A stretch of 59,598 nt of DNA from an archaeon UBA543 (GCA_002502135.1 DAPM01000005.1:1-59598); one strand, 5' to 3'; positions 5,319 through 54,693 are shown, counted from the first letter of the stretch. Notes: generated by a model from the letters alone, not told the origin. Translations and numbers: made by a program.

Positions 5319-6479
5319 TTACTTTAACCACCGAGCAAGTAGATAAGTCCACACAAACCAGAGCATGTACTGGTCAAAACCAGTTTCGATCCAGACAATG
5401 CTGAGTGCCAGAAGAACTGGATAAAATATTTTCAGGAGAGATTCCTTCTTTTCAAATGAGTTGTGGGCATTCCCTAAAATAAAGCCGAGGAAGAGCATCC
5501 AAGCTAACGCAAACAATGGCCCGAACTCCATTAACGCAGGACCAAGCATGGTTGAAGTAAGGCTGTTCTCAGCACCTAGGAAATTAGCAAGATGGTCACG
5601 TGGCCTTGCGTGATGCATCATAAACTGACCGTGCTCAACACCGAATGGCATACTCTTTTCCAGAACCTGCTCATAAACAGAATGTGTTGACCCAGCTCGC
5701 CAGAGTAGAAGAGACCCAGGATCTGCGATTGGAGAAATGTAATATCCAAGGAATAAGATAAACAGAAGAGCTACAATGAGCGGAACCACCACTGTCTTGT
5801 TATCAAGTTTCTTATTCTTGTAAGCAGCAATTGTTCCACTGAGCAGGAAGAGTAGGATGACGATTCTGAAACCTGTTAAAGCAATTACTGCTGTGGCTGC
5901 GATTATTAAAGCGTAAACATGCATGCGTTTTTTCTGCCTGAGCAAAAGGCCAATGTATCCGAAAAGCAGACAGAAAATCGCACCACCCCAAGACCAGCTC
6001 TGGTCCACAAGAAGTCGAAGTGATGGTTTCAAAAGCGGAATGCCACCAATCTGCATGAAAGTTAGTGCAAGGAAGGCTAGGCCGGCGTAAATTAATCCAG
6101 TGTAGAACTTTGTAGGTATCTTGTCATACGCCAGTAGTTTTCTGACAAAGAATAAGAAGAACCAAAGAATCACCATTATTATTATGAACGCGGGGATCCA
6201 GTGGGTGTAGAAGAATTTTGCAAAAGCGAAGGAGTAGTAGACAGTAAGTGCTGCTAGGAAAAGTGTGACCCATCTGCCTCTGAGTTTTTTTAGTTTGAAC
6301 TTTTTTGAGAGACGGACTCCGAGATAAAAGAATGCTAGAGAGATTAGCGCGAAAACCACTCCGAAAATTGTTGGGCTAGTAAGGTTTTTCCAATAAAGAA
6401 ATCCGGCTCCGGCCAAGATAAGGAAAAGCAAGTAGAATGCAATAAACGATTCTGGCCTGAATAGATCTAGTTTTTTCAT
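5319..6479 (-). CDS. polytopic membrane protein (possibly Wzy/O-antigen-polymerase-like)
   Basis: 386 aa with more than 10 hydrophobic segments. The functional guess comes only from neighbouring glycan-type genes. Confidence 0.45.
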   Translation of the reverse strand: MKKLDLFRPESFIAFYLLFLILAGAGFLYWKNLTSPTIFGVVFALISLAFFYLGVRLSKKFKLKKLRGRWVTLFLAALTVYYSFAFAKFFYTHWIPAFIIIMVILWFFLFFVRKLLAYDKIPTKFYTGLIYAGLAFLALTFMQIGGIPLLKPSLRLLVDQSWSWGGAIFCLLFGYIGLLLRQKKRMHVYALIIAATAVIALTGFRIVILLFLLSGTIAAYKNKKLDNKTVVVPLIVALLFILFLGYYISPIADPGSLLLWRAGSTHSVYEQVLEKSMPFGVEHGQFMMHHARPRDHLANFLGAENSLTSTMLGPALMEFGPLFALAWMLFLGFILGNAHNSFEKKESLLKIFYPVLLALSIVWIETGFDQYMLWFVWTYLLARWLK

Positions 6480-10225: not shown

Positions 10226-10681
10226 ATGAATCCGTTCCTCTGGATGCTTGTGATAACTGTTGCACCGTTTATAGAGCTGAGGGGCTCGATCCCATATGGG
10301 ATTGCTGCTGGGATAAGTCCGGCTCTTGTAATTGTTTCATGTATTACATTTAACATTCTGTTGATACCGGTTTTGTTTGCGTTTTTGAATCTTTTCTTTG
10401 AAGGATTAGAGGATGTGCCATGGATTGGGAAGTTTATTGGAAGAAGAATGGCTAAGATTCACAAGAAAGCTGGGAAGTATGTTGATAGGTACGGACCAAT
10501 TGGGTTGGTGCTTTTTGTAGCTGTTCCTTTGCCAGGAACTGGAGCTTATTCTGGTGCGCTTGCTGCTTATTTGTTGGGAATGGATAAAAAGAAAGCAATG
10601 GTTTCTGTGGCAGTTGGTGTTTTAATTGCTGGAATTCTAGTTAGTTTGGCTAGCTTGGGTGTTGTTAATCTAGTTTTGTAA
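10226..10681 (+). CDS. small multidrug-export-like membrane protein (COG2426 family)
   Basis: PFIELRGSIPYGIAAG signature. The start is set at the internal ATG at 10226, because the tracked start at 10175 overlaps the divergent gene. Confidence 0.6.
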   Translation: MNPFLWMLVITVAPFIELRGSIPYGIAAGISPALVIVSCITFNILLIPVLFAFLNLFFEGLEDVPWIGKFIGRRMAKIHKKAGKYVDRYGPIGLVLFVAVPLPGTGAYSGALAAYLLGMDKKKAMVSVAVGVLIAGILVSLASLGVVNLVL

Positions 10682-10980: not shown

Positions 10981-11012
10981 TAAACTCACAAAAGTTAACA
11001 AAAATTTATAAC
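10981..11012 (+). promoter_or_regulatory. conserved promoter module P1 (TAAACTCACAAAAGTTAA-N2-AAAATTTATAA)
   Basis: Near-identical to modules at 52951-52982 and 54652-54684 (minus strand). Its TATA element ends ~23 nt before the ATG at 11035. Confidence 0.55.
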
Positions 11013-12512: not shown

Positions 12513-15500
12513 TTAAAATGCACCAAGTTTCTTCTGTGCTTCAATTCCAAAAATAGAGTCAATTGACTTGCTGTACATTGTAATCTGCTGCGCTAGATAT
12601 GGGTTTATGTTGTACTTTTCAATCATGCGCTTTGAAACATCAAGGTATTTTTTGATAGTTCCTTCATGAACTGTCATTGTTAATTTGTTTCCACAATTAC
12701 TACAAACCCCAGAAAGGGGGGGTCTGCGATATTTTGTATTGCATTTGGTGCACCTGAGTTTCTGTTTCGCGAAGGTTCTTAGATTTCCTTTGATGTCAGG
12801 CAGAAAGTGGGACGACAGGATTCGCTCTGCAACGTCATCAGCATCAACAGCAAATGATTTTTCAGCCAAACCTAATTGTTTTTCAAGTTTGTCCAACATC
12901 TCTCCTTTTGAATATGTGTTCACAATTGGGCCGGCGTTGATGTCTTTTGTGTGATGTGTGAATGGCCAATTGAGAAGCGCATCTTCTTCTTCAAGAACAG
13001 ATTCAACTGTTTTCAATCCAATTGTGTTTGGATCTGCCCCTTGTTCTGTGGAATTATAAAAGTCTAAACCGTAACTATCAACAATGTCAACATCATAAAC
13101 CTCATCATCAAGTTCCAAAGCAGTTAAGCGGGTGCTGATAACAAGTGGAGCATCCATTCTTCCTCCACGCCTATCTGGTAAGAATGATTTGGAGAAATTG
13201 AGGAAAGAATCGAGCAAAAGGAGCACTGCATCCTCGTCACCATCACAATCTCTTCTTTTTGCATCGTGGAATGCTGGATGAGCATATCCCACTCGGGCTT
13301 TTGTGAAACCAATGAGTCTGCCGATGATACCAGTAGAGGTATGTGGCGCTAGACCAATTATCATTTTTCCAATTAAATCCTGTTTCTTCTTGCATTTGTA
13401 ATATGGTTTAAGTTTGTAATATTTTTCAAGTAACTCATCAATGAATTTGGAAGCTGCTAAAAGATAGATTGCAGCAGATTCCTCACCATAGTCAGATACA
13501 ACGACGTCTTGTGGTTTTAGTGGAAGAAGCTGATCTCCAGTTTCAAGTGGTTTTCCTTTCCAATCTTCAGTGTAGCCGAGTTTTCTGAGTTTTGCAACTG
13601 GTGCCTGAACTTCGTCAGGGGTAAAGTGAGTGAGTGGTGCGTCTGTGCTGTCAAATCTGATTGTGCCGTCCTTGAAAACATAAAGATTTTGTCGCGCCCG
13701 GAGAATTCCTTTTTCTAGGGCTTCCGGAGTTTTGCTTTTGCTAGACATCCCAAGAACTCCTTTAACTTTCTCAGGCGAAGGAACACCAAGTTTTGTAAGT
13801 GCAGAATCAAGATGAGTCTTGAAATTGATTGATTGTGTTTCGTAAGCAGTTGTTGATACCCCGCAGACTGGGCATTCTTCAGCAGGAATAGACCGACCAC
13901 AGCGTGGGCAGGCGGTTATGAGAATTGTTTTGCTGTTACAAGTGGAGCATCTTGGAAAAATACCTTGCGTTCCACAAGCTTCGCATTTGTATTTTGAGAT
14001 TTCGGGCGTGCTCGTCTGAGTAGTTTTGGCGATTTTAACAATATCACGGATACGTCCGCGTCGGCCCCCGGTTGGGAAAATTGCATTTGGTGGGGGGACC
14101 ATTTTTCTAGGTTTGGCTTTTTCAGGTCTGCCCATGCGTGCTCCAATATAAGTTGGAGCTCGGTTTTTGATTTCAACTGGACATAAATTATTGATTATCT
14201 TGATAACGTTTTTAGAGTGAAGGGTTTGTTTTTTCACGTTGCTAAGGTTCTTGGTTGGGAAATCTAAAGAGAAGAGAAGTGCTTTGAAATGCTCTGCGTC
14301 AAGAACTAGTTGATTTTCTGAAATCAGATGGAATACGCCCAAGTGTTCAAGTATTTTTTTTGTTTGCTTAGTGTTTTTTATGGTATTTTTCTCTGGATTA
14401 ATTGCTTCGGCTAGAGTTACAAGATCCTTAACAGTTATGCTGTTCCAGTAAAAAGTGTGGATTGGGTGAAAAGGAATATTATATTTTTTAGAGAGCTCAA
14501 CTGCTTTTTCAAAGCTTGGTGGTTTGGATTGGAATATTTCTGCATCTGTTTTGGATTTTTCAGCAAGCTGGAGACCCCACCATTCTTCACAGTAGGCTGA
14601 TTTTGCAAGAGTTTGGTTGTTTTCTAGAAAGTCGCCAGCAGAAATGAGTATATCACCAAGTTGGATTATTGCTTCTACTTCTTTCTCAAGTTCGACTGCT
14701 TGTTCGATTGTTGAGATTCTGAGAACTTCCCCAGAAGTTAGGCGAACTAGTGGACCTTCGATAGTGTCGCATGGTGTGATTATTGCGGCTTTGCCAGGCA
14801 TTTCCAATCGGACTTGGGTCCCAATTGCAATGAATTCTCCAAGGGTATGCATTGTTGCAGGGTTCATAGCTGCCGCAGCGTAACCGCTAGCTCGCGTTCT
14901 ACCATAGCGGAGACGGAAGCCACCCTGGCGAGAATAATGTGAGAAAACAGGTCGTCCTGCTGGAACTTCATTTAGGAATTTTTTGCTACCGCCACTTTCA
15001 ACAGCCGCTTCTGGTTCGTCAATAAGTGTGTCAAGCCAATCCCAGCGCCCGTCGGTGCCAGTTTGTTCTATTATTTCTTGGATATCCGAAGCGCCTTCGC
15101 CAGTCAAATCACCAACCCACTCAAAACCAGGAAGTTTGGTTTCAGAAATCTTCTCATGAACGTCTGGTGTGGCTGTTGACGCTTTTTTAACAAGCAAGCC
15201 CTCAAGCCAAGACCAATCCATACCAAAACTGTCTTGAATTGGCTTCATTCGCTTCCAGAGTTTTGGGGCTTTCTGAGCCACTCCCTCGGCTACAACCAAA
15301 CACATTCCACCACGCACTCTGTTGGATGGAACACGACCGAGATCTCGGAAGTTTGCAACTTCGTAGGTTTCTGTTGGCTCACCGTCAATGCAAACTGGAG
15401 TATTTCTGATTATTATTTTGACTTCCTCTTCAGACGGCATGTATTGTAAGTGAGTTCTTCTACCATACCATTGAATTTCCTCATAATACCGAGACACTTC

Positions 15501-16010
15501 TTGTTGAGTTGGTTGGTATGGTGCGAGATTCAAGACCTTACGGACATAATCTGCTATGATGATACATAGCGCTTCTGCAGTACCACCTGCTGCACGGATT
15601 GGTCCTGCGAAATAAACTGAAATGTATTGGGTGTTATCAGAATTCTTGTGAAGTTTGACTTTGGCAATTCCTTCTAGTGGTGCTGCCACAGAACCTTGGG
15701 TTAAGAAAGCGAGCCCTGCCCTTATTGCAATGTCAGCTGCTTTTTCGATGTCAGCTTCATTTTTTGCAACCTGTTCTGCAATTTTGAATGCAGCGGCAAC
15801 ATCACTCTCGGTTACTGCTGTTACTTTTTTTACAATATCTGCAAGCCCATCTAAACCAATAAGACCCTCAACCTTTTCTGAAAGATTTTTTGCAATATAA
15901 ATTTCTGGTTCTTCAGAAGGATCAACACCATTTTTCCTAGCCTGGCTAGCTAATTCAAACTCCTTTTTTGTTTCATTCTCCAGTTTTTTGAAATATTGTT
16001 CTGTGTTCAT
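12513..16010 (-). CDS. polC: DNA polymerase II (PolD) large subunit DP2
   Basis: About 1165 aa from the ATG at 16010 (the tracked start at 16076 is TTG). Has the DCDGDEDA catalytic signature and several CxxC zinc clusters. The length argues against inteins. Confidence 0.9.
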   Translation of the reverse strand: MNTEQYFKKLENETKKEFELASQARKNGVDPSEEPEIYIAKNLSEKVEGLIGLDGLADIVKKVTAVTESDVAAAFKIAEQVAKNEADIEKAADIAIRAGLAFLTQGSVAAPLEGIAKVKLHKNSDNTQYISVYFAGPIRAAGGTAEALCIIIADYVRKVLNLAPYQPTQQEVSRYYEEIQWYGRRTHLQYMPSEEEVKIIIRNTPVCIDGEPTETYEVANFRDLGRVPSNRVRGGMCLVVAEGVAQKAPKLWKRMKPIQDSFGMDWSWLEGLLVKKASTATPDVHEKISETKLPGFEWVGDLTGEGASDIQEIIEQTGTDGRWDWLDTLIDEPEAAVESGGSKKFLNEVPAGRPVFSHYSRQGGFRLRYGRTRASGYAAAAMNPATMHTLGEFIAIGTQVRLEMPGKAAIITPCDTIEGPLVRLTSGEVLRISTIEQAVELEKEVEAIIQLGDILISAGDFLENNQTLAKSAYCEEWWGLQLAEKSKTDAEIFQSKPPSFEKAVELSKKYNIPFHPIHTFYWNSITVKDLVTLAEAINPEKNTIKNTKQTKKILEHLGVFHLISENQLVLDAEHFKALLFSLDFPTKNLSNVKKQTLHSKNVIKIINNLCPVEIKNRAPTYIGARMGRPEKAKPRKMVPPPNAIFPTGGRRGRIRDIVKIAKTTQTSTPEISKYKCEACGTQGIFPRCSTCNSKTILITACPRCGRSIPAEECPVCGVSTTAYETQSINFKTHLDSALTKLGVPSPEKVKGVLGMSSKSKTPEALEKGILRARQNLYVFKDGTIRFDSTDAPLTHFTPDEVQAPVAKLRKLGYTEDWKGKPLETGDQLLPLKPQDVVVSDYGEESAAIYLLAASKFIDELLEKYYKLKPYYKCKKKQDLIGKMIIGLAPHTSTGIIGRLIGFTKARVGYAHPAFHDAKRRDCDGDEDAVLLLLDSFLNFSKSFLPDRRGGRMDAPLVISTRLTALELDDEVYDVDIVDSYGLDFYNSTEQGADPNTIGLKTVESVLEEEDALLNWPFTHHTKDINAGPIVNTYSKGEMLDKLEKQLGLAEKSFAVDADDVAERILSSHFLPDIKGNLRTFAKQKLRCTKCNTKYRRPPLSGVCSNCGNKLTMTVHEGTIKKYLDVSKRMIEKYNINPYLAQQITMYSKSIDSIFGIEAQKKLGAF

Positions 16011-16086
16011 TTTGAAGCGGACTTTATTTTGAAACGACGGAGGCCGCTTCAAAATTTGTTCAGTAACCAACTGCAAGGCCTGAACA

Positions 16087-17517
16087 TTATTGATCTGTGA
16101 AATTGAAATTAACTAAGTTGAGCTCTCTGGTTTGAAGGTTTAAGAGAGGTAGGATTGCAGGGGTTGGTTCATGTCCGCAGAGTTTTTGGAATGCAGTCTG
16201 CCCTTGCCAGGTTCCGCTGTTGATGATGTTGATTCCACGGTACATTGAATTTCCATTTGAGTGAACGTGTCCGGCGTGGAAAATGTCAGGAACAGTTCGA
16301 ATAACCATTTGATCCTGGCCTGAAGCAATGAGGCCGGTGTCATATGGTGGCGATAGGTGCCTGCGGATAAGAAGTGATTTCATTACAAGTTCTGGTTTAG
16401 TATATCCATCTTTGAGAGTTGGGTCAGCAGTAATCAGTGAATCCAGACTTACTCCGTGGTACATGAGAACATCCAGACCACCGTTGTCGTGTTCTGCGAT
16501 TTTTATTGTGGCGGGGTTGCCGACAAGTTCAATATTTTTGAGTTTGTAAAGTGGTTCAGCAACTTCTGGGTCAAGTGGTGGTTGAGGCTGGCCGAGCCGG
16601 ATAAAATCGTGATTGCCAGGAGAAAGGATTGTTTTGATGTGGTTTGGCACTTGGGAAAAGTAGTTCGCAGCTTCTTGGTATTGCTCTTCAATATTTGCAA
16701 TTGAAAGTTCTTCATCCTGCCGAGGATATATCCCAATTCCGTCAACAATGTCTCCTGCAAGGAAACAGTATTTGATTTTTGAAACCAATTCCTGCTGCTC
16801 CTTTCCACCAACTTCACCATTAAGCCAGGAAAGGAAGCGTTTGAACTCTTTTTCCATGAATTTTTTGCTCCCAATGTGGGTGTCAGATAGAAAAATCGCA
16901 TAAGATTCATGTTTCAGTTTTTTTGGTTCAGCCACAACCGGGACATCTGGCCACATTATCTCGTCAGCAAACATTATTCCGTCGCCCATTGTTCCGGCAA
17001 CACCGATAGCCTCGTCCATTACAAGTGTTTCTGCTTGTGGTCTTACCTCTTTACCAGAGGCAACTATTTTCACTGTACCGGTTGGATCTTCAAGTTCAAA
17101 AAGAATATTTCCTTTTGCAGTTATGCGTTTGTTGCAGACCAAACCAATTGTGCTCACTTTTTCTTTTACCATTTTGGTCATGCTATTAACTGATGATGGG
17201 TTGGTCAGACGACCTGAAAGAAGTTTTCTAAAGTGGGTGTATCGATTGTTGAAAAAAGTGGAAAGGTCTGAAACCCCTCGAATTGGCTTGTTTTTTTCAA
17301 AGTTTTCAAGTATTGAAAGTGTGGATTCAGTTGGTTTGTTAAGGTTATCTTCAATGTGTTTTGGGAGGATTGTGATAATATCTTGGTTTATGTTTTTTAG
17401 TAAAAGCTCTGCTGCTTCTAGTGGTTTTTCCTGTTCCAGAACAAGCCCCAGCGCATCTTTTGATATTTGAACTTTATTATTTAGAAAAAGTTGGAGGGTC
17501 TCGTTTTCGAGACTCAC
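16087..17517 (-). CDS. polB: DNA polymerase II (PolD) small subunit DP1 (exonuclease)
   Basis: 476 aa. Calcineurin-like phosphoesterase motifs LSDTHIGS, GDIVDG, GNHD and GHVH. The GTG start overlaps the orc1 stop (GTGA). Confidence 0.9.
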   Translation of the reverse strand: MSLENETLQLFLNNKVQISKDALGLVLEQEKPLEAAELLLKNINQDIITILPKHIEDNLNKPTESTLSILENFEKNKPIRGVSDLSTFFNNRYTHFRKLLSGRLTNPSSVNSMTKMVKEKVSTIGLVCNKRITAKGNILFELEDPTGTVKIVASGKEVRPQAETLVMDEAIGVAGTMGDGIMFADEIMWPDVPVVAEPKKLKHESYAIFLSDTHIGSKKFMEKEFKRFLSWLNGEVGGKEQQELVSKIKYCFLAGDIVDGIGIYPRQDEELSIANIEEQYQEAANYFSQVPNHIKTILSPGNHDFIRLGQPQPPLDPEVAEPLYKLKNIELVGNPATIKIAEHDNGGLDVLMYHGVSLDSLITADPTLKDGYTKPELVMKSLLIRRHLSPPYDTGLIASGQDQMVIRTVPDIFHAGHVHSNGNSMYRGINIINSGTWQGQTAFQKLCGHEPTPAILPLLNLQTRELNLVNFNFTDQ

Positions 17518-18707
17518 GACAACTCTCCTTTCAAAATATCACGGGACTTTTCAAGTGCTCTCCCAGTCATTGCAAGTTTGATTTTTCTAGTGCGGCCATA
17601 CCTTCCTCTTGAAATCACGCTTGCATTTATTACACCCAACATATCAAGCTCTGAAATTAAATCCGATACCCTGCGTTGGGTTAACGGAGCCAATCTGCTT
17701 TGTTTGCAGAAGGTTTGGTATACTTCATAAACATCCCCAGTTCCAATTTTTTCATTATTTAGATCTGAAAGGTAGATGATGCTGTGAAGAACTAGCTGAG
17801 ATTGACGGGGTTGGGTTTTTACCACTTGCACAACACGGTCAATATCGAGTTTTTGCTGAGCATCGTCAACATGGTGTAGCTGAATTGTTGTATCGCCTTT
17901 CCGTTCGCACAGCTCACACGCCACTCTGAGAAGATCTAGAGCCCTTCTTGCATCTCCGTGCTCCTGGGCAGCCAGTGCTGCGCATTTAGGGATGACATCT
18001 GCTGCTAGAATGTCTTTCTGTAGTGCTATTTCAGCACGTTGGGATAGAATGTCTCGGAGCTGGGTTGCATTGTATGGTGGAAAAACTAGTTCTTCTTCAG
18101 AAAGTGATGATTTTATTCTTGGATCAATGTTGTTGGTGAAGGATAAATCATTTGAGATTCCAACAATACTCACCCGACTATCTTTTAATTCTGTGTTTAT
18201 TCTGGACAGGTTGTAAAGCACATCTGTGTCAGAAAGAGAATCAATTTCATCCAAAATCAGAATGAAGATGCCTTTTTTCTTGTGCATTGTTTTAATGAAA
18301 AGTTTGTAAACTTCATCTGTTGGTAATCCAGTAGATGGCACTTCTTCACCAAATTGTGCTAAAAAGTGTGCGAACATTCGGTAGGCGGTGTTGATTTTCT
18401 CAAGTTTGCAGTTGAGATAGCAGGTTTTTAGTGCTGTTTTCTGAGCTGCAGCTTTTTTCTCTAATTCCTGACCAACATATCTGGTTACAAGCGTTTTTCC
18501 AGTGCCGGTTTTGCCGTAAATAAATACATTGCTGGGTTTATCCCCCCGCAGAGCCGAAACCAAGATTTGAGCAAGCTGATTTATCTGCTCTTCCCTATGT
18601 GGAACCTGATTTGGCGTGTATGTGTCCTGAAGCGCGTCTTTTCTAGTGAAATTCGGAGCTCGGACTAGGTAATCATCGAAAAGTTTATGCAACGTTTGCT
18701 GTGCCAT
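17514..18707 (-). CDS. orc1: Orc1/Cdc6 replication initiator
   Basis: 397 aa. Walker A GKTGTGKT, Walker B ILILDEID, a C-terminal winged-helix-like region, and an adjacent ORB-bearing AT-rich region. Confidence 0.9.
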   Translation of the reverse strand: MAQQTLHKLFDDYLVRAPNFTRKDALQDTYTPNQVPHREEQINQLAQILVSALRGDKPSNVFIYGKTGTGKTLVTRYVGQELEKKAAAQKTALKTCYLNCKLEKINTAYRMFAHFLAQFGEEVPSTGLPTDEVYKLFIKTMHKKKGIFILILDEIDSLSDTDVLYNLSRINTELKDSRVSIVGISNDLSFTNNIDPRIKSSLSEEELVFPPYNATQLRDILSQRAEIALQKDILAADVIPKCAALAAQEHGDARRALDLLRVACELCERKGDTTIQLHHVDDAQQKLDIDRVVQVVKTQPRQSQLVLHSIIYLSDLNNEKIGTGDVYEVYQTFCKQSRLAPLTQRRVSDLISELDMLGVINASVISRGRYGRTRKIKLAMTGRALEKSRDILKGELS

Positions 18708-18906: not shown

Positions 18907-18927
18907 GTTCCAGATGAAGTAAAGGGG
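18907..18927 (+). promoter_or_regulatory. ORB-like box
   Basis: GTTCCAGATGAAGTAAAGGGG. Confidence 0.55.
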
Positions 18928-19107: not shown

Positions 19108-19264
19108 TTGTTGGCGATTTTTGGTGAAAAACGGGCGATGAGTTGTGGTTTTATAGGAATATGAAAGAATAGTTTGGAAATTTTGGAAAACCCCTTAAAA
19201 ATATTGAGTTGTTGAGTCCCTTTTTCCTTTTGATGAACCCACCCCAGAATTAATGAGGTGATCA

Positions 19265-19382
19265 TTGAAAAAATTGAAAAATTTAGAAGAAAAAATATTA
19301 AAAAAAATAAAAATTTGGAAAAATAATGAAAAATTTGAAATAAAAATATTGAAAAAGTGTGTTAAAAAATTAAAAAAATTAA
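19265..19382. other. A-tract duplex-unwinding-element candidate
   Basis: A run made almost only of A/T, built from repeated (A/T)TTGAAAAA units, and flanked by ORB-like boxes. Confidence 0.6.
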
Positions 19383-19395
19383 GTTCCAGTGGAAG
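19383..19395 (+). promoter_or_regulatory. mini-ORB core
   Basis: GTTCCAGTGGAAG matches the classical TTCCAGTGGAA core. No G-string follows. Confidence 0.6.
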
Positions 19396-19488
19396 TTTTG
19401 GAAAAATTGGAATTTTCTTTATATATATAAATATTTTCCATATAGATAATAAATAATAAAGAAATTTTACACGAACGCTTCTTCTTGA

Positions 19489-19523: not shown

Positions 19524-19545
19524 TTATTTACTATATAGTAAATAA
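19524..19545. repeat. 22-nt perfect palindrome, copy 1 of the TTTACTATATAGTAAA module
   Basis: TTATTTACTATATAGTAAATAA is its own reverse complement. Related copies sit at 20318-20348 and 29814-29844. Confidence 0.8.
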
Positions 19546-20317: not shown

Positions 20318-20348
20318 ATTATTTACTATATGGTAATTAATTAATAAA
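20318..20348 (-). promoter_or_regulatory. promoter/operator module, copy 2
   Basis: Minus strand reads TTTATTAATTAATTACCATATAGTAAATAAT directly abutting the ATG at 20317. That gives a TATA-like box at about -31 to -24 and a half-palindrome at -17 to -1. Confidence 0.55.
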
Positions 20349-28191: not shown

Positions 28192-28206
28192 AGTTTAGAT
28201 TAATTT

Positions 28207-28623
28207 TTACTCTGCAGGTGCTTCTTCTGGTGCTGGCTCTTCTGCTGGAGCAGCTTCCTCTGCCGGTGCCTCTGCCTCAGCTGGAGCTTCTGCTTCTGCA
28301 GGTGCAGCTTCTTCCACTGGTGCTTCTTCAACAGGTGCGGTTTCTGCTTCTGCTGGAGCTTCTGTTGGTGCAGCTGGTGTCTCGCTAGGTATAGCTGCCA
28401 TTTCTTTTATTCTAGCACAGATAAACTCTACAACTTCTGGTGCATCTGGAATTGTGAAGCTCTTCTTGAACCTCTTAGTTCCATCCGGTGCGAAAAAGCC
28501 GCGTGAAATTGCGACAAACTCGTTTGTACCTTCCGGTGCTATAGCCCTTTTTCGAGCAACTTCAATGAAGTTGTTGTTTCCAAAGGGTACTTCTTCTGCT
28601 TTAATTGTTTCAAATTCTACCAT
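28207..28623 (-). CDS. hypothetical protein with Pro/Ala/Glu-repeat tail (N-domain possibly PC4/ssDNA-binding-like)
   Basis: The ATG at 28623 is preceded by GGAGG 8 nt upstream. The C-terminus is made of APAEAE repeats. The N-domain guess is weak. Confidence 0.5.
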   Translation of the reverse strand: MVEFETIKAEEVPFGNNNFIEVARKRAIAPEGTNEFVAISRGFFAPDGTKRFKKSFTIPDAPEVVEFICARIKEMAAIPSETPAAPTEAPAEAETAPVEEAPVEEAAPAEAEAPAEAEAPAEEAAPAEEPAPEEAPAE

Positions 28624-29697: not shown

Positions 29698-29710
29698 TAA
29701 AAATACCCTT

Positions 29711-29728
29711 GTCTATACACCTGTATAG
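29711..29728. repeat. left terminal inverted repeat of the island
   Basis: GTCTATACACCTGTATAG is the exact reverse complement of 33594-33611. Confidence 0.85.
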
Positions 29729-29763
29729 TGGTGGGTAGATGGGTAGATTGTAGATAGGTAGAC
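29729..29763. repeat. degenerate heptamer array (GGTAGAT units)
   Basis: TGGTGGGTAGATGGGTAGATTGTAGATAGGTAGAC. The 12-mer GGTAGATTGTAG recurs inverted at 30595-30606. Confidence 0.65.
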
Positions 29764-29813
29764 AAAAATTAAACCACTTCTACTGCTACTGGTTTTCACT
29801 CGCTTTTCTAATT

Positions 29814-29844
29814 TCTATTAATTATTATCTATATAGTAAATAAT
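29814..29844 (+). promoter_or_regulatory. promoter/operator module, copy 3 (no ORF downstream)
   Basis: TCTATTAATTATTATCTATATAGTAAATAAT is 26/31 identical to the minus-strand reading of 20318-20348. It is followed by TAGG rather than ATG. Confidence 0.45.
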
Positions 29845-30028
29845 TAGGTTATTTTTAATCCAACCCATAAGGCACACTCACAAAATCATTCTCAAAAATC
29901 CTACACCTTTCCACTTCTCACAAACCGATTTTTCACACACAATCCCACATCCCTCACACACAAAACCCTCACAAATCCCCCGAAACACGTATAAATCCCA
30001 AGATCCTACACATAAACACTCACAAACT

Positions 30029-30122
30029 GCGCCGGTAGTTTAGCCTGGTATGACCTAAGCTTCCCAAGCCTCTCAAAAGGCGAAAACAGCTTATGACCCG
30101 AGTTCGAATCTCGGCCGGCGCA
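30029..30122 (+). tRNA. tRNA-Gly (anticodon CCC) with an intron of about 21 nt in the anticodon loop
   Basis: Acceptor GCGCCGG/CCGGCGC, T-arm CCGAG-TTCGAAT-CTCGG, anticodon stem TAAGC...GCTTA with loop start TTCCCA. About 21 extra nt (~30067-30087) lie at the canonical 37/38 position. Confidence 0.8.
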
Positions 30123-30181
30123 TTTTTTCTTTCTCACAATACCTCTAAATACTGACAAATGTCCATATTCTAACTCTCCCA

Positions 30182-30254
30182 AACTCCGTCTCGCCACGGA
30201 GGATGGCGGTAGGGCGTTCGTGCTTCGCACGAAGCCCTGTTTTGAAGTTGGTTC
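30182..30254 (+). ncRNA. candidate structured RNA element, copy B (unknown class)
   Basis: Same 37-nt 5' part as copy A. The hairpin at 30212-30238 has a UUCG tetraloop and the same bulged G, and the same CTGTTTTGAA tail follows. TATA-like CTCTAAATA lies ~30 nt upstream. Confidence 0.45.
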
Positions 30255-30447
30255 GGTCTGTTTAAGTGACTATTGTCAGTTATTCTAACTCTCACAAACG
30301 AAATATTCACTTAATTTTCGGTAGTGCGCTTGCTATCGGTTTTGATATATCAGAGTTTTCATATATCCCTGCACATAAAACCTATATCCTTAACAATATA
30401 AATTCTATCTCTCACACCCAAAAACCCAATACCTGACAAATGTCATG

Positions 30448-30614
30448 TAGTGGGTAGTTGGTGGTTGGTAGTAGGTAGAATTATGATATTTTGCACCAAA
30501 ACACCCCAAAACTAGGAAATTTATCAAAAATCAGCCAAAACCACCATATCAGTGACAAATGTCACTTATTCGCACCTTCTCTACTCTCCACCCACTACAA
30601 TCTACCTTCCACCC
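30448..30614. repeat. inverted pair of GGTAG-type heptamer arrays
   Basis: Array at 30448-30480 (TAGTGGGTAGTTGGTGGTTGGTAGTAGGTAGAA) and an approximate inverted partner at 30576-30614. Confidence 0.55.
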
Positions 30615-30890
30615 AATAAAATTCCAGTTTTAGTAATTTATCCAGCAAAACATCAATTTCAATACTCCTAAAACCACTAGCATGAAATATGTCAGGTCGC
30701 AAAACCAATAGCAACAAATATGTCATCTGACATATCTTACATATAAATCTGACATATGTACTGTTTGCCCTACATCAAAAACCGCTAGCCTGCGACTAAA
30801 ACCGATAGCAGTGAAATGTCAGATATGTAAGCTTACATATCTTACACGTTTTTCGAAAGGTTTATAAGGGAGAAAGCACTACCCACCGAC

Positions 30891-31445
30891 ATGAAACTGT
30901 TCTCATTTTTCAAGAAAAAACCCAAAAATGTGTCCGATATGTCAGGTGACACATTACCTGACACATCAGATGTATCAGATGACACATCTGACATATCAGA
31001 GGTGACAAATGTCCCTGTTTCACGCGAAGATCCACTTTTCACTATTTCAAGACAACTAACTCAAGTTCAATACGAACTCAAAGACATCAAACCACTTATT
31101 GAATCTAGCACACAAAGCCTTCGCGAAGACCACTACAGATTACTCGAAGAACAAGCAAAAACAGTTGAAGAATACAAAAAACACCTTAATTACAAGAAAG
31201 AAAACCTGAAGCAAGCAAAACAACGAGTAGAAACTGAATTAAAACACATAGACGTCGACAGCAAAATCTTAGATCACCTTTCAATAGCCCCAAAACGCAC
31301 AGTAGAAATTTCTGAAGAATTAAAAATTAGCAGAGGCTATGCTGCAGAACGTGTGAAAGCATTACTTGAAGCAGGCCAAATCGACCGCTTCAAACAAGGT
31401 AAAAAAGCTTATTACAAAATCCCAAAACCAGAAGCAAGCAACTAA
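30891..31445 (+). CDS. hypothetical DNA-binding protein (iteron-encoded Ser/Asp repeat, coiled coil, C-terminal winged-helix-like)
   Basis: 184 aa. TATA-like TTTATAAGG ends ~20 nt before the ATG. N-terminus MKLFSFFKKK, and C-terminus ISRGYAAERVKALLEAGQIDRFKQGKKAYYKI looks like a wHTH. Confidence 0.55.
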   Translation: MKLFSFFKKKPKNVSDMSGDTLPDTSDVSDDTSDISEVTNVPVSREDPLFTISRQLTQVQYELKDIKPLIESSTQSLREDHYRLLEEQAKTVEEYKKHLNYKKENLKQAKQRVETELKHIDVDSKILDHLSIAPKRTVEISEELKISRGYAAERVKALLEAGQIDRFKQGKKAYYKIPKPEASN

Positions 31446-31557: not shown

Positions 31558-31666
31558 TACTCGGTCTTGATGCCACTGGTTGTTTATAAGGTTTCCCCCC
31601 TATTCTCAATAACCGAAAAAATAACTCTCACAAAAATATTTAAACTACAACCAACATCTTCTTTTT

Positions 31667-31876
31667 ATGGTTAAAGATAGACAAATTCATACATATCCCG
31701 ATCTTAAAAAAAGATTAGCAAAAGCACGAAAACATCTCGATGCTATCGATGAAAAAATAAAAGCTGACAACGATCCTGCAGCAATCAAAGAGCTAGCTCG
31801 TACAGTCGATTATCTTGGTTTTGTTTTGGATGACGTCTTAGCTGTGTTATATCAAAGAAGACTCCTCAAGGAATAA
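31667..31876 (+). CDS. small hypothetical protein (69 aa)
   Basis: The ATG is preceded by CTCACAAAA-ATATTTAAA (word plus TATA) at about -25. Confidence 0.5.
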   Translation: MVKDRQIHTYPDLKKRLAKARKHLDAIDEKIKADNDPAAIKELARTVDYLGFVLDDVLAVLYQRRLLKE

Positions 31877-31878
31877 AC

Positions 31879-32472
31879 TTAGTCGCTTCCTCTCGCTTTT
31901 GCAGTCTGAACCAACGAATTATACTCACTAGCAACATGCTCCCAAAACCTACTAAACTGAGTACTAGGTCTCACAATTTTTTTGTAGTATTTCTGCTTTG
32001 ATCTCTCGTGTGTAAATGCCTCACGCTCCAATCTTACCATCCCAACACGTCTCAATCTCGGCAGGATAACGTTGTAAAACGTGGCTTTTGAGAACTCTTT
32101 TTCCCGAATAAACGCACCAATATCATCTCCACGCAATACCTGCTTCTCAAACAACAAACCCATGAATTCTATCGCCATCAGGTGATATTTTTGCTGATAT
32201 TTCGGTGGAAAAACCAATTCCAAAATCTGATTTAGCTCAACTCTCACATTCTTATGATATGCCCAATTGTCTCGCAGCCTCTTGATATCGTCAAACCAAA
32301 TCGACTCTTTGCTTGGCACGCCCCGGCTCGCAGGTCCTCCAACATTCGAACTTGGTTTTTTAGAATTATCTCGCTCAACAACTTGCACAACCTCGGATGC
32401 ATACTCAATATCATTATGGTGTTTATTATCCATAATCTCGGGTATGACATCTTGGTATTTAAAACTTACCAT
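31879..32472 (-). CDS. hypothetical protein with C-terminal winged-helix-like segment
   Basis: 197 aa. FSKATFYNVILPRLRRVGMVRLER resembles a wHTH recognition region. Its promoter lies within the 43-nt repeat. Confidence 0.5.
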   Translation of the reverse strand: MVSFKYQDVIPEIMDNKHHNDIEYASEVVQVVERDNSKKPSSNVGGPASRGVPSKESIWFDDIKRLRDNWAYHKNVRVELNQILELVFPPKYQQKYHLMAIEFMGLLFEKQVLRGDDIGAFIREKEFSKATFYNVILPRLRRVGMVRLEREAFTHERSKQKYYKKIVRPSTQFSRFWEHVASEYNSLVQTAKARGSD

Positions 32473-32495: not shown

Positions 32496-32538
32496 ACTTT
32501 ATCAAAAAACTGGTTCCGGTCTACCATAACGGTGTGAT
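32496..32538. repeat. 43-nt direct repeat, copy 1 (TATA plus TACCA-N3-xGGTx dyad)
   Basis: 34/43 identical to 32598-32640 by my hand alignment. On the minus strand it supplies TTTTTGATAAAG about 30 nt upstream of the ATG at 32472. Confidence 0.65.
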
Positions 32539-32597: not shown

Positions 32598-32640
32598 ACT
32601 TTATCAAAAACATGATTTCAGTCTACCATATTGGTATGAT
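32598..32640. repeat. 43-nt direct repeat, copy 2
   Basis: Contains the perfect dyad TACCATATTGGTA (32624-32636). Confidence 0.65.
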
Positions 32641-32698: not shown

Positions 32699-33025
32699 TT
32701 ACTCAGTTTCTGGTGTAGTTGCTTCAGTTCTTTGCGCCAAGCTTCTAAAAAGCAAATTCTCAAAATCTGTAGCTAAATTATGCCCATTTTCTGTTAAACT
32801 GATGTATTTTACACGTCCATCCTTGTTAAATTCAACAAGTCCGTGTTCCTGCATCTTTTGAAGCAGTTTTACAGTGTGAGCGTACGTGCAATCAATCTTT
32901 TTAGCTAAATTGCTTGCATAAGCGTCTCGATCAGCCTGTTTGATGTGAACTAGTAGTCTAGCTGGTTTTTTTCTAAGAAACATCTCTTCTAATTGAATAT
33001 TTGTTGCCATAATTGTAACCCCCAT
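32699..33025 (-). CDS. winged-helix transcriptional regulator (ArsR/MarR-like), putative
   Basis: 108 aa. ASNLAKKIDCTYAHTVKLLQKMQEHGLVEFNKDGRVKYISLTENG is a classical wHTH layout. An alternative ATG at 33010 fits the TATA spacing better. Confidence 0.65.
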   Translation of the reverse strand: MGVTIMATNIQLEEMFLRKKPARLLVHIKQADRDAYASNLAKKIDCTYAHTVKLLQKMQEHGLVEFNKDGRVKYISLTENGHNLATDFENLLFRSLAQRTEATTPETE

Positions 33026-33028
33026 ACG

Positions 33029-33056
33029 AAACCAGATAAATTGTGAGATCTGGTTT
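33029..33056. promoter_or_regulatory. inverted repeat over the wHTH gene promoter
   Basis: AAACCAGAT-N10-ATCTGGTTT with perfect 9-nt arms. The spacer contains ATTGTGAG and overlaps the TATA-like region. Confidence 0.55.
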
Positions 33057-33458
33057 TTGTATCTTCCAAAACAATGTTTTGAACGACAGGTATTCTAAAG
33101 GTAGTATTAGTATATAATCTTTTTCACTTTACATTTGTCACTACTTTCTGAAAACCGATAGCAGTCGCCACGTTCAATTTATCACTCAAAAGTTCGTTTG
33201 TGAGACTTAGCTATTAGCTTTTAGCTTTTGGCTCTTAGCTAACAACTAAAAGCCAATTGCCAACAGCTAATTTGTGAGACCGAAAAAACAACTCTAACAA
33301 AAAATTTAGCAGAGTTGCGGTTTTGTGAGTGAAAAATCAATTTGTGAGAGTTTTGAGTTAGCTATTCTTGTTCTGATCTAGTTGAATGGGCGTGTAGAGT
33401 GTAGTAAATTAGTGAATTAGATTCTGAAAAATTTTTGTGAGACTTAAATATTTGTGAA
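33040..33458 (-). repeat. array of CTCACAAA words in inverted orientation (at least 6 copies)
   Basis: The plus strand reads (T/A)TTGTGAG at 33040, 33197, 33271, 33322, 33341 and 33435, with a variant at 33451. Confidence 0.7.
33207..33241. repeat. five in-phase heptamers TTAGCTN
   Basis: TTAGCTA TTAGCTT TTAGCTT TTGGCTC TTAGCTA. An approximate inverted partner follows at 33246-33275. Confidence 0.75.
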
Positions 33459-33468
33459 ATTTATCCAA

Positions 33469-33501
33469 GGGGCATAGGAGCTAGGGAGCTAAGGGGCATG
33501 G
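33469..33501. repeat. degenerate G-rich 7-8-mer array
   Basis: GGGGCATAGGAGCTAGGGAGCTAAGGGGCATGG. An approximate inverted partner sits at 33541-33580. Confidence 0.55.
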
Positions 33502-33593
33502 AAAAATAATAATGAAAAACGTTATGTAGAGAACCATTTTCTTAGCCCCATTGCCCCCTACTTGCCTAGCCCCCTTAACCAAAATAACCTATT

Positions 33594-33611
33594 CTATACA
33601 GGTGTATAGAC
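33594..33611. repeat. right terminal inverted repeat of the island
   Basis: CTATACAGGTGTATAGAC is the exact reverse complement of 29711-29728. Confidence 0.85.
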
Positions 33612-33615
33612 GACC

Positions 33616-34662
33616 CTATTTTCTTAACTCTTCAAGTATAGATTCCTTAGCTTCAGTTATCCTGACAAATTCTTTTATCTTCGCCTCATAATCTTCATCT
33701 GTATGGGAATAATCAGTCGCTCCTCTATCTATTGCAATTTTGTAAAACGCCTTCTTTACTTCTCTGGCGCTTGCTCCTGGTTCCAACCCAAGAAGCTCAT
33801 ATCTTTCATCTGTTTCTGCCCACTTAACTGTTGGGACTTCCTTTTCCCACTCAGGTTCCTCAACAATCCTCGGCCCTTTCTTCGGCGTCTTCACTTCACC
33901 AACAACCTTAGGTCCTTTCCTCTCCAACTTTTTCTCAATCTCTTCCAGCATTTTATTTAATTCATCTGCAAGATTCGGGTTTGCCTTAATGGCTTTTTCA
34001 CAACATTCTTTGGCCTTCGCATACTCCTTTCCCTCATAATACACCTCCGCAGCCTTCTTGTAAGCGTTTCCAATAAAAACATGGCTCTCTATCTCGACTT
34101 TCGCTTTCTTCCCACCCATTCTAATAATATTCTGCAACCTTTCTATCTCTCCCTCATATTTCTTTTTAACATTTTTATCCAGTTTGATTGCTGTCTCATA
34201 ACGAAGCAATGCAGTGTCGTATTCTCCCAAATTTTCAAAAAATTCAGCAGCGAGAACATAACGTATACTTTGGAGTTGCGGTTCTCCTTCACAAGCTGCA
34301 ATCGCAAGTCTCACGTATTTTACTCCCTTTCTGAAAAAATATTTTTTCTTCCAATCTGATGGCGCCAACTTCCCACGATCAAGATATGTTTTAGCTATCG
34401 CATACAATGCTGCCATTGATTTACTATCAATTTTTAATGCTTCCACAAAACAGTTCTTTGCCTCTTTGAATCGCCCAGCTTTCATATGTGCGTTTCCATC
34501 TTTTATGTAGCCGAGCCCCCTCATTTTCCTACGCGCCGCTTTCCCAACCCTTGCTCTTTTTTTCCTAAAGAAATTACCTTTCATATCACTTACATGTCCT
34601 AACTCCTTTTTATACATATCTCCCAATAACCTTAAAAGCCACCACCCACTACCTCCCTTCAT
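33616..34662 (-). CDS. TPR-repeat protein with degenerate C-terminal J-like domain
   Basis: 348 aa with several TPR-like repeats. The C-terminus YELLGLEPGASAREVKKAFYKIAI resembles a J-domain helix but lacks HPD. The true start is probably internal. Confidence 0.55.
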   Translation of the reverse strand: MKGGSGWWLLRLLGDMYKKELGHVSDMKGNFFRKKRARVGKAARRKMRGLGYIKDGNAHMKAGRFKEAKNCFVEALKIDSKSMAALYAIAKTYLDRGKLAPSDWKKKYFFRKGVKYVRLAIAACEGEPQLQSIRYVLAAEFFENLGEYDTALLRYETAIKLDKNVKKKYEGEIERLQNIIRMGGKKAKVEIESHVFIGNAYKKAAEVYYEGKEYAKAKECCEKAIKANPNLADELNKMLEEIEKKLERKGPKVVGEVKTPKKGPRIVEEPEWEKEVPTVKWAETDERYELLGLEPGASAREVKKAFYKIAIDRGATDYSHTDEDYEAKIKEFVRITEAKESILEELRK

Positions 34663-52928: not shown

Positions 52929-52950
52929 AAAACTAGCGAGTTTTCTAAAC

Positions 52951-52990
52951 CTTATAAATTTTCTTTAACTTTTGTGAGTTTACAGAGTTA
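52951..52990 (-). promoter_or_regulatory. conserved promoter module P2 (upstream of radB)
   Basis: Minus strand reads TTAACTCTGTAAACTCACAAAAGTTAAAGAAAATTTATAAG. The ATG lies ~23 nt after the TATA element. Confidence 0.55.
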
Positions 52991-53149
52991 ATCTGGAATT
53001 CTCTCTGTCCTACCATAATTTTTATTTGTAATATATAGTGTCTCTTTACTTCCACATTTTGGGCAGATTGGTGACTTCCTACTAAAAAACCCTCTCATTT
53101 TACCCTTAAATTCCTTGCCACAATCTTCACAACCCCACCACTTTTTCAT
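52988..53149 (-). CDS. 53-aa zinc-ribbon protein
   Basis: MKKWWGCEDCGKEF...PICPKCGS has two CxxC pairs. Its ATG overlaps the TraB stop (ATGA). Below the ORF-track cutoff. Confidence 0.5.
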   Translation of the reverse strand: MKKWWGCEDCGKEFKGKMRGFFSRKSPICPKCGSKETLYITNKNYGRTERIPD

Positions 53150-54288
53150 AACAAACTAACTACAACTGGCAATGCTATAAATGTTCCTACAATACTTCCC
53201 AAATTAGCAAAAGCAACAACCAGCAAAACACGAGTAACTCTGTTCTTCCAGTAAGCCTTGAAACTATCCAACTTATTCAAACTCTTAAAATCTTTAACTT
53301 TGGGATTGCGAATTTTAGCTTCAACATATCCTGCAAACCATCCAGCAGCTAACAGCGGATTCACAGAAGTAAATGGTGCAGCAACAAAAGCAGTCAACAT
53401 CGATAACGGATGACCAAAAGCAGCTGCAGCACCGACAGCAGAAAGCGTTCCATTAATCAAAAACCACCACATTAGCATATTCAAAGTAGTTCCAATTCCT
53501 TTAGTAACAAAACCATAAATCAGCAAACCAAGCAGAAGCGCAGGGATCACAAGTCCACCAATCTTCAGCTTCTTCCTTTTCCTCGGAACAGTCTGCAATT
53601 TTGAAAACGTAATCGGCTTGTCAATATACCTCTTAATCCCTTCAACATGCCCAGCACCAACAACAGCAACAATCTTCTTCCCTTCAGCCCTCTGCAGCAT
53701 TCCGGCCATAAACACATCTCTCTCATCAACTAAAATCCTCTTCACACTTGGGGCAGTCCGAGCCAGCTCTTCCATAGCATCAGCAAGTACATCTTCTTTC
53801 TTCAAATTCTCAACAAATGCTTCATCAACATCTGCAGTCAAAGTATCAAAAAATAGCGACTTCACAACTTTCAGTTTCTCCATCAACGGCATAGCATTGA
53901 AAGCCCGTTTCAAAGTCACTTGCACATCCCTGTCCAGGAAAACCAGCTTGGCCCCGCTTTTCTCTGCTGTTTCAATAGCAGCCAACATCTCAGCACCAGG
54001 ATCAATACCCAATTCCTTTCCAATTTTCCTCTGAATATTAGACAATATTAAACTCGAAAGGAACAAATATGTCTGCCCTTGCTTAATCACATCCTTAATC
54101 TGAGTATCCTGCCACGCTTCCTTATTTTTCAGCGCATGATAACGATTCTCACACAACTCAATTGCAACAACATCCGGTTTCTCTGTCTTAATAATATCAG
54201 TAACCTCATCTCTACTCTTCTTGGAAACATGCGCAGTCCCGACTAGGAAAACCTCCTTGCCATTGTGCTCTAATTTTTCAACTGCCAA
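53146..54288 (-). CDS. TraB/PrgY-family protein with C-terminal TM region
   Basis: 380 aa. VFLVGTAHVSKKS and AVVGAGHV are typical of TraB (COG1916), followed by about 4 TM helices. Confidence 0.75.
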   Translation of the reverse strand: MAVEKLEHNGKEVFLVGTAHVSKKSRDEVTDIIKTEKPDVVAIELCENRYHALKNKEAWQDTQIKDVIKQGQTYLFLSSLILSNIQRKIGKELGIDPGAEMLAAIETAEKSGAKLVFLDRDVQVTLKRAFNAMPLMEKLKVVKSLFFDTLTADVDEAFVENLKKEDVLADAMEELARTAPSVKRILVDERDVFMAGMLQRAEGKKIVAVVGAGHVEGIKRYIDKPITFSKLQTVPRKRKKLKIGGLVIPALLLGLLIYGFVTKGIGTTLNMLMWWFLINGTLSAVGAAAAFGHPLSMLTAFVAAPFTSVNPLLAAGWFAGYVEAKIRNPKVKDFKSLNKLDSFKAYWKNRVTRVLLVVAFANLGSIVGTFIALPVVVSLL

Positions 54289-54631
54289 CTAAAACATCCT
54301 CTAATTTACTTGGTACTATTTCCAGCTCTCCCTTATATTCCTTTACCTCGCCAGTAACAGTAACAAAATCTCCACTTTTAATAATCGGCATACTGCTTTT
54401 GAATCCAAACAAAATCAACTCACTTTCTTCAAACTGAGCCACAACCACCGAATCATAAATCTTTACAGAATCTAACACCCCACTAATAGTAACAACCTTC
54501 CCCAACAACTCATCACTTACATCAGTTAGTTCGAAAATCGGCGGTTCGTGATTAGCACAAGCAAACCAAAGCACCACAATCCCAATTACTGAAGTAAAAA
54601 CTGCTAATAGCATTAATGTTCGATCTTCCAT
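54278..54631 (-). CDS. membrane-anchored OB-fold protein
   Basis: 117 aa. N-terminal TM helix, then an OB-like segment VTISGVLDSVKIYD...VTVTGEVKEYKGELEI. Overlaps the traB start. Confidence 0.55.
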   Translation of the reverse strand: MEDRTLMLLAVFTSVIGIVVLWFACANHEPPIFELTDVSDELLGKVVTISGVLDSVKIYDSVVVAQFEESELILFGFKSSMPIIKSGDFVTVTGEVKEYKGELEIVPSKLEDVLVGS

Positions 54632-54651
54632 AAAACATCAAAACACCCACA

Positions 54652-54693
54652 ATTTATTAACTTTTTTTAACTTTTGTGAGTTTATGGAGTTAA
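54652..54693 (-). promoter_or_regulatory. conserved promoter module P3 (upstream of the OB-traB operon)
   Basis: Minus strand reads TTAACTCCATAAACTCACAAAAGTTAAAAAAAGTTAATAAAT. The ATG at 54631 lies ~20 nt downstream. Confidence 0.55.

Follow-up and report, generated by a model that had tools for sequence, protein, structure and literature searches.

Archaeal winged-helix proteins of the MarR, TrmB, Lrs14 and Lrp types are known for homotypic clusters of operators or upstream activating sequences, among them those of autoregulated regulator genes, in which short repeats adjoin the winged-helix genes. Multi-copy sites that face inward just inside a terminal inverted repeat are known from the ends of Mu, Tn7, Ac/Ds and En/Spm and from viral inverted terminal repeats (ITRs). 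Here, two arrays of the short word CTCACA(A/C)A are described that bracket a cassette of four small genes, referred to as the island, in a 59,598-nt stretch of DNA from the archaeon UBA543 (GCA_002502135.1, DAPM01000005.1:1-59598); this whole stretch is called the window. The two arrays face each other, and their polarity and conservation support the view that the words behave like functional, oriented protein-binding sites.

The host is an uncultured marine Undinarchaeota (DPANN) archaeon. The window sequence was found at 100% identity in contigs of many ocean metagenomes, including those of Tara Oceans, and the closest named relative of its RadB protein (82% identity) is annotated as a Candidatus Undinarchaeales archaeon, a DPANN lineage described in PMC7414124. 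A search of GTDB representative genomes with its seryl-tRNA synthetase gave a best match of only 53% and pointed to neither an organism nor a syntenic region.

Opposed CTCACA arrays and their conservation

The left array (29877-30418) carries eight copies of the CTCACA core, all on the plus strand, and spans the tRNA-Gly gene and its promoter. Six of these copies, at 29877, 29917, 29953, 29968, 30019 and 30291, match CTCACA(A/C)A in full. The original prediction had listed all eight under this degenerate word; the core is indeed present at each position, but the copies at 30133 (CTCACAAT) and 30411 (CTCACACC) do not fit the word. The right array (33040-33458) consists of six copies of the core, all on the minus strand, at 33040-33047 (reading CTCACAAT), 33197-33204, 33271-33278, 33322-33329, 33341-33348 and 33434-33441, and of one degenerate word, TTCACAAA, at 33451-33458; the positions predicted here were correct except that the copy placed at 33435 begins at 33434. 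With eight plus-strand copies on the left, six minus-strand copies on the right and none directed outward, the predicted inward orientation of both arrays was confirmed. The copy at 30019 had been thought to abut the first base of tRNA-Gly, but it covers 30019-30026 and stops 2 nt short of the gene, which begins at 30029. One more plus-strand copy is located between the arrays at 31627-31634, in the context CCGAAAAAATAACTCTCACAAAAATATTTAAA; as predicted, it stands directly 5' of the TATA-like box (AATATTTAAA) of the 69-aa gene that starts at 31667.

In the whole window, CTCACA(A/C)A was found 21 times against 6.1 expected, and 12 of the 21 matches fall within the 3.9 kb between 29.7 and 33.6 kb. 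For the flanks, the expected counts were derived from local dinucleotide shuffles of each flank separately (n = 2000). CTCACA occurs eight times in the left non-coding flank (29729-30890; 0.64 expected) and six times in the right flank (33026-33592; 0.17 expected), with no outward copy in either, and 0 of 2000 shuffles matched the observed counts. The most island-enriched 6-, 7- and 8-mers were CTCACA, CTCACAA and CTCACAAA, and TCTCACAA was present 10 times in the island and once in the remaining 55.7 kb.

A chance or composition artefact was ruled out by the shuffles and by the fact that the polarity is not explained by GC skew. It was also ruled out that CTCACA is a generic promoter word belonging to the context of the transcription factor B recognition element (BRE) and TATA box: the word occurs at most 100 nt upstream of only 6 of 60 genes, one of these copies falling inside a neighbouring gene, and its intergenic copies are concentrated in the island (14 in 2.0 kb, compared with 5 in 5.1 kb outside). 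Within the window, neither the intergenic background nor generic promoter context, both of which the original prediction had named as possible trivial origins of the arrays, accounts for them.

The distance between copies is irregular (13-338 nt); a flank has up to about nine copies, some as far as 1 kb from the promoter. Extended to the neighbouring bases, the consensus reads (T)AAC(T/C)CTCACA(A/T)(A/T). Often, CCGAAAAA or the complement of it precedes the consensus by about 5 nt, and a run of T follows 4-5 nt downstream. A literature search for the word returned primers only.

Through homologues of two of the island proteins, isl197 and isl184, the block was traced to six more lineages (L157, L088, L090, L092, L094 and L152). 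In all seven lineages, the block sits between a cluster of M50, KH and PRC-barrel genes and a cluster with a peptidase and seryl-tRNA synthetase (SerRS), and inward CTCACA arrays were present in every case. In total, the 10.6 kb of flanking non-coding spacer contained 79 inward and 6 outward copies, the latter located at the outermost edge of an array; for the first six lineages (8.7 kb), the expectation was about four copies per strand. On the side away from p320, the flanks had 38 inward and 3 outward copies, and their motif-masked GC skew was about zero or positive. Since the polarity was kept in these flanks, composition cannot explain it.

Alignment of the window with L157 and L088 demonstrated that the spacer has largely diverged, whereas the motif copies and two inner modules are invariant, as are the tRNA promoter, the TATA boxes and the terminal palindrome. 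The left copies at 30019, 30133, 30291 and 30411 are positionally kept in L157 and/or L088, and four of the six right copies (those ending at 33204, 33278, 33348 and 33441) align to copies in both. The right copy ending at 33047 is mutated in both lineages, and that ending at 33329 is weakly kept. Some outer copies have turned over, with number and orientation retained.

On both sides, the innermost copy is part of a longer inverted pair in which TAACTCTCACAAACGA is followed, after about 25 nt, by GCTTGCTATCGGTTTT. The left inner module (30285-30343, plus strand) comprises TAACTCTCACAAACGAAATATT, about 20 nt and GCGCTTGCTATCGGTTTT, and it is an inverted repeat of the right module (33151-33210, minus strand), which precedes the TATA box of the 108-aa gene by about 80 nt. 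The module pair is also found in L088, with 89-96% complementarity, and the left module is invariant in the three-way alignment.

The island proteins diverge at the same rate as SerRS. The identities to L088 were 86% for isl108, 83% for isl197 and 83% for SerRS; those to L090 were 66%, 57% and 64.5%, respectively. This indicates vertical inheritance rather than recent acquisition, and, as judged from the sequences compared, the locus is a conserved, vertically inherited part of the marine Undinarchaeota chromosome, where the arrays resemble a conserved hub for protein binding rather than the ends of a transposon or virus. A distant lineage, L153, has isl197 and isl108 dispersed and no arrays, and isl184 was not found in the stretch examined; this single case hints that isl184 or the cassette arrangement is what the arrays are linked to.

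The orientation of the block relative to its flanks is the same in the window, L157 and L088 and opposite in L090, L092, L094 and L152, where the outer genes still point inward and the arrays likewise. The tRNA-Gly gene remains on the p320 side and its strand flips, so that in L090 and L092 it is antisense to the surrounding array; the L094 and L152 loci lack it. A single inversion, with the terminal palindromes as its ends, would account for the two block orientations, but it fails: the tRNA changes strand without changing side, which takes at least two rearrangements. Because the arrays read with the adjacent genes in every arrangement, the polarity appears to be either selected or tied to the direction of transcription.

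Cassette proteins and possible roles of the arrays

The four genes between the arrays are convergent. Rightward, on the plus strand, run isl184 (30891-31445), whose product has a disordered acidic N-terminus, a single helix of about 85 residues and a C-terminal ArsR/TrmB-like winged helix, and isl69 (31667-31876), encoding a small helical protein. Leftward, on the minus strand, run isl197 (31879-32472), encoding a winged helix with a long C-terminal helix, and isl108 (32699-33025), encoding a MarR/HTH_27-type winged helix. In domain searches of the four island proteins (Pfam, PHROGs and NCBIfam), only winged-helix domains were found. The isl197 family is narrow: a set of 1.84 billion proteins contains 67 representatives of it at 50% identity. 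Fold searches with the predicted structures of isl197 and isl184 gave generic winged-helix matches, none at E <= 0.001: the winged helix of isl184 superposes on pNOB8 AspA at 1.2 Å over 59 residues, a generic match above E = 0.001; the match of isl197 to the replication terminator protein (RTP) of B. subtilis is not significant (E = 0.05, TM score 0.28-0.44); and its match to RepE is very weak. No two-domain Rep-like fold was present in the predicted structures. The stop codons of isl69 and isl197 are 2 nt apart (31876-31879), which leaves no space for terminators, and the two transcripts therefore probably overlap or interfere.

The explanation that is favoured here, at a level of confidence somewhat short of even, is that the arrays are clusters of asymmetric recognition sites, putatively bound by a winged-helix protein of the cassette and oriented with the convergent transcription. 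We infer that the sites act at the level of DNA, that the protein binding them is probably one of isl108, isl197 and isl184 and that the outcome is regulatory. Each copy reads with the transcription of the adjacent genes, and the copies of every array, like the one at the isl69 promoter, are directed at the gene beside them; since the cassette is convergent, the arrays point toward each other. As in operator clusters, the sites are intergenic, near promoters and beside genes of DNA-binding proteins, and they are kept in orthologous regions against a diverged background. Under this scheme, many sites would be occupied upstream of both outer promoters, as would further sites over the start region of tRNA-Gly and, in the isl69 promoter, at the BRE position. 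The occupied sites would build two nucleoprotein complexes that set the expression of the cassette and that may contact each other, and the conserved inverted pair formed by the innermost copy of each side, CTCACAAACGA and GCTTGCTATCGGTTTT, would be the core operator.

Several observations weigh against operator clusters of this kind. For most copies, the nearest mRNA promoter is 80-1000 nt downstream, a long distance for archaeal operators, and the irregular spacing of the copies forms no obvious cooperative lattice. The usual targets of dimeric winged-helix regulators are palindromes, and other, palindromic motif families of the locus could be the true winged-helix operators. The fold searches revealed generic winged-helix similarity only. 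Finally, the same strict polarity would be shown by a signal acting in RNA or by a polar barrier.

Of these two, the RNA-level signal is the less doubtful, though still unlikely. It supposes inward transcription of the flanks into non-coding RNAs or long leaders, in which CUCACAAA would be a repeated RNA motif acting as a protein sponge, a processing signal or a stability signal; this would explain why the copies are on the sense strand. The strict polarity (79:6), always co-directional with the neighbouring genes, fits this, as do the copies in the leader and trailer of the tRNA and the one copy in a predicted hairpin loop of the isl108 5' untranslated region. A palindromic TATA-like element (29822-29843), about 35 nt upstream of the first left copy, is kept in L157, but it is missing in L088. 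In addition, the tRNA is antisense in L090 and L092, so that a polymerase transcribing the array in sense would pass head-on through the tRNA gene. The left flank is poor in G in line with the GC skew of the region, and the other flank lacks this bias. No Rfam family was matched by the arrays: at permissive thresholds, the tRNA was the sole Rfam match.

A slightly slimmer chance is given to a polar architectural element, in which the opposed arrays would be orientation-dependent anchors or barriers that mark a small domain near the chromosomal replication origin (oriC). They would do so by holding together a DNA loop through protein bridges, by forming a complex like that of a centromere or by halting a translocating machine. 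The two sets of polar sites, which are opposed, similar in size and about 2.8 kb apart, fit such an element, as does the inward polarity, which survives inversion of the internal block between lineages. The predicted structure of isl184, with its 85-residue single helix and a winged helix that superposes on AspA, could bridge DNA, and isl197 has the weak fold matches to RTP. However, every structural match is above E = 0.001, and co-orientation with transcription explains the polarity equally well. The locus contains no ATPase of the ParA, SegA or SMC type, and no partition NTPase (ParA-, SegA- or ParM-like) was found in the block or its immediate flanks, as a centromere would have. The opposed geometry fits a fork trap, but a trap at this position, about 10 kb from oriC instead of at a terminus, would be functionally senseless; moreover, the closeness to oriC was shown for the window genome only and is suggested for L157 by synteny with Hef. 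The more specific version, in which isl184 or a partner zips or anchors the flanks into a loop of about 3 kb, or forms a polar barrier beside oriC, and so insulates the regulatory cassette, is considered improbable. If true, such a loop or barrier would be an archaeal counterpart of convergent boundary elements or of Ter-like polar sites.

The original prediction compared the arrays with the sub-terminal protein-binding sites of complex transposon ends or viral ITRs. An imperfect 29-nt terminal inverted repeat does bracket the region, with a left arm at 29700-29728 (plus strand) and a right arm at 33594-33622 (minus strand) that overlaps the stop codon of a TPR/DnaJ gene. Its 17-nt core, TCTATACA-CC-TGTATAG, is palindromic by itself. 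The left arm is kept in L157, L088 and L090 and the right arm in L157 and L088 only, and thus the palindrome stands at both ends in three of the seven lineages. In L090 it is found on the p320 side only; in L092 it is a direct-repeat variant (6073 and 13321), the second copy lying beyond the RTC and TPR/DnaJ genes; at L094 and L152 none was detected. In the general form TCTATACA-NN-TGTATAGA (29712-29728 and 33593-33610), the central dinucleotide is CC in the window, and in L088 (6808 and 10904) both arms have the same, concerted CC-to-CT change. The terminal palindrome may be a separate operator or recombination site.

It could be supposed from this that the region is the relic of an ancient integrated mobile element or virus, since domesticated, with the repeat as its termini and the arrays as sub-terminal binding sites. 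The 29-31-nt inverted repeat of the window, L157 and L088 with its concerted change, oriented repeats that recall Mu, Tn7 and Ac-type ends, a tRNA gene inside the region and the inversion of the block between lineages all speak for such a relic. Against it, no transposase, integrase, Rep or viral gene was found in the island or elsewhere in the window, and searches of Pfam, PHROGs and NCBIfam with the extra genes of the relatives returned nothing. There is no target-site duplication: the bases outside the arms, which read ...TTTTCCACTA to the left and CTTAACTC... to the right, have no direct repeat in common. An exact search of viral contigs for the terminal-repeat core GTCTATACACCTGTATAG gave 0 matches, and the isl197 family was absent from the viral contigs and plasmids searched. 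The locus is single-copy and syntenic in the seven lineages (empty sites were not searched systematically), with the SerRS-like divergence described above; all 13 of the 13 locus-bearing contigs are continuous with the same flanks, and in four lineages no second terminal palindrome was detected at the opposite edge of the island. Contigs from four public runs contained no inversion or excision joints, although rare forms are invisible in such data, where depth is a whole-contig mean, and this result is weak. The comparison with transposon or viral ends is therefore not supported. An ancient, fully domesticated element is very unlikely, and nothing requires such a reading.

The weakest alternative is hardly credible: a second, Orc1-independent origin, with the arrays as iterons and a winged-helix protein of the locus as initiator, is suggested by opposed arrays of asymmetric sites, which are typical of origins, by the AT-rich stretch at 29766-29860 beside the left array and by iteron initiators being winged-helix proteins (with RepE as a very weak fold match only), but the sites are irregularly spaced, 2.8 kb of genes separate the arrays, no two-domain Rep-like fold was predicted, the GC skew has no inflection at the island (30-33 kb), and initiator, boxes, AT-rich element and skew switch are all located at 17.5-19.5 kb.

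That canonical origin, at 18.7-19.5 kb, is preceded by the minus-strand genes of Orc1/Cdc6 (17514-18707) and of the small (16087-17517) and large (12513-16076) subunits of DNA polymerase D (PolD). Its spacer has a GC content of 28.6% and contains boxes resembling origin recognition boxes (ORB), GTTCCAGATGAAG at 18908 and GTTCCAGTGGAAG at 19383, and a stretch of A/T only at about 19250-19380. The cumulative GC skew peaks there, at the sole sign change in the window.

Promoter modules and other repeats

The original prediction also saw the word as the core of a chromosomal promoter module and proposed that one DNA-binding factor links the island to host promoters. The 18-mer TAAACTCACAAAAGTTAA has exactly three copies in the window, each of which precedes a TATA box by 5-7 nt and the ATG by about 50 nt: at 10981-10998 (plus strand) upstream of the gene of a TctA transporter, at 52965-52982 (minus strand) at RadB and at 54667-54684 (minus strand) at an operon of an OB-fold and a TraB gene. 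The predicted position 10981 was right, and 52951 and 54652 were off by about 14-15 nt. The three modules are parts of near-identical promoter cassettes of about 65 nt, and the TctA copy drives the gene at 11035. In three relatives (L154, L155 and L156), RadB is directly divergent from Cdc48, and it follows that the OB-fold (54278-54631) and TraB (53146-54288) genes, which in the window stand between RadB and the 95-aa and Cdc48 genes (52929-54684), are an insertion carrying a duplicate cassette.

In the RadB promoters of relatives, the module is kept at 14-15 of 18 positions with the AAC...AGTTA frame conserved, but the word inside it is altered to CTCACG, CCCACA or CCCATG. One contig with an altered word comes from the metagenome of L090 and probably from the same genome, whose island arrays keep strict CTCACA. 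Since the word changes in the RadB modules while the arrays keep it, the shared word is weak evidence for a shared factor, and the module is probably a separate element that merely shares the word. A metagenome scan for the 18-nt module returned 56 matches, nearly all by chance in unrelated organisms; two TARA contigs (L141 and L150) look related, too few to define a regulon.

The tRNA-Gly(CCC) gene inside the left array (30029-30122, plus strand) has one intron and its own TATA box at about 29990. The intron content varies: the gene measures 72 nt without an intron in L088 (10566-10637), 93 nt with one in the window, and 115 nt in L157 (9123-9237) and 156 nt in L090 (6844-6999), apparently with more than one; in L092 it is located at 6388-6479. 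ARAGORN and Rfam miss or misname the longer versions, one of which was labelled tRNA-Trp.

A perfect 22-nt palindrome, TTATTTACTATATAGTAAATAA, was found at the edge of oriC, with close variants 0.8 kb beyond that edge and at the left edge of the island (window positions 19524-19545, 20319-20340, 19428-19455 and 29822-29843); the island-edge copy is kept in L157 (8922-8943). Its role could be that of an operator common to the oriC region and the island or of a bidirectional TATA-like element that links them. An AT-rich stretch (29766-29860) adjoins the left array.

Several other repeat families occur in the spacers. Palindromic repeats of the types TGACAAATGTC and CTGACATAT crowd the region upstream of isl184 (30153-31013), and they extend over the first 120 or so bases of its reading frame, so that the acidic S/D/T-rich N-terminus is encoded by repeats; TGACA palindromes of a similar kind are present upstream of the L090 isl184 orthologue (10480-10600). 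Repeats of AAAACCGATAGC and a 22-nt AT palindrome are further families. Two 43-nt direct repeats upstream of isl197 (32496-32538 and 32598-32640), 81% identical and 102 nt apart, are probably isl197's own operator pair. At 30153-30299, a lineage-specific insertion or duplication of about 115 nt, absent from L088, contains a GC-rich double hairpin (30186-30240; fold z = -4.15) flanked by a 19-nt direct repeat, TATTCTAACTCTC(C/A)CAAAC, at 30166 and 30281. The 38-mer at 30182-30219 has about twofold depth, and 30202-30246 is shared with a 12.9-kb contig of another organism. The segment may be a small repeated or mobile RNA-like element. Beside the island, 18-nt tandem repeats (28201-28362) encode the Pro/Ala/Glu-rich C-terminal tail of a 147-aa protein.

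Comparison with known systems

To our knowledge, gene regulation and chromosome organisation are almost wholly undescribed in the uncultured, genome-reduced Undinarchaeota. In such a compact genome, about 1.7 kb of conserved non-coding DNA has been retained, and it combines a strictly polar multi-copy site with three winged-helix genes, two of them as conserved as that of an aminoacyl-tRNA synthetase. The locus thus offers a concrete candidate protein-DNA system that can be tested without cultivation. If the polarity proved to be architectural and not transcriptional, the arrays would represent a new type of element in archaeal chromosomes.

With its inverted ends and tRNA gene, the island is easily annotated as mobile, and the present analysis corrects this tempting error. 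In contrast to the transposon and viral ends that it resembles, the island is single-copy, vertically inherited, syntenic and devoid of a recombinase or target-site duplication, and its repeat is present at both ends in three of seven lineages.

Plasmid R1 parC with ParR, the AspA site of pNOB8 and the iterons of RepE and pi are alike in that two blocks of direct repeats surround the gene of a putative binder, and the region would be autoregulated; here, the repeats are chromosomal and conserved and have neither a partition NTPase, nor a Rep protein, nor a regular period. The fork traps Ter/Tus of E. coli and Ter/RTP of B. subtilis share with the island opposed polar sites that adjoin a winged-helix gene with a long C-terminal helix, but the island is near oriC and not at the terminus, and the weak fold match to RTP is not significant. 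Convergent CTCF loop anchors, which are asymmetric boundary sites facing each other, provide a purely geometric analogy, and we know of no SMC-dependent mechanism here.

The archaeal winged-helix operator clusters remain the nearest relatives in kind. They differ from the putative sites described here in that the latter are asymmetric, strictly polar, irregularly spaced and present on both sides of a convergent cassette, at up to about nine per flank and up to 1 kb away. They are alike in their conservation in orthologous regions and in having one copy that overlaps the BRE/TATA region.

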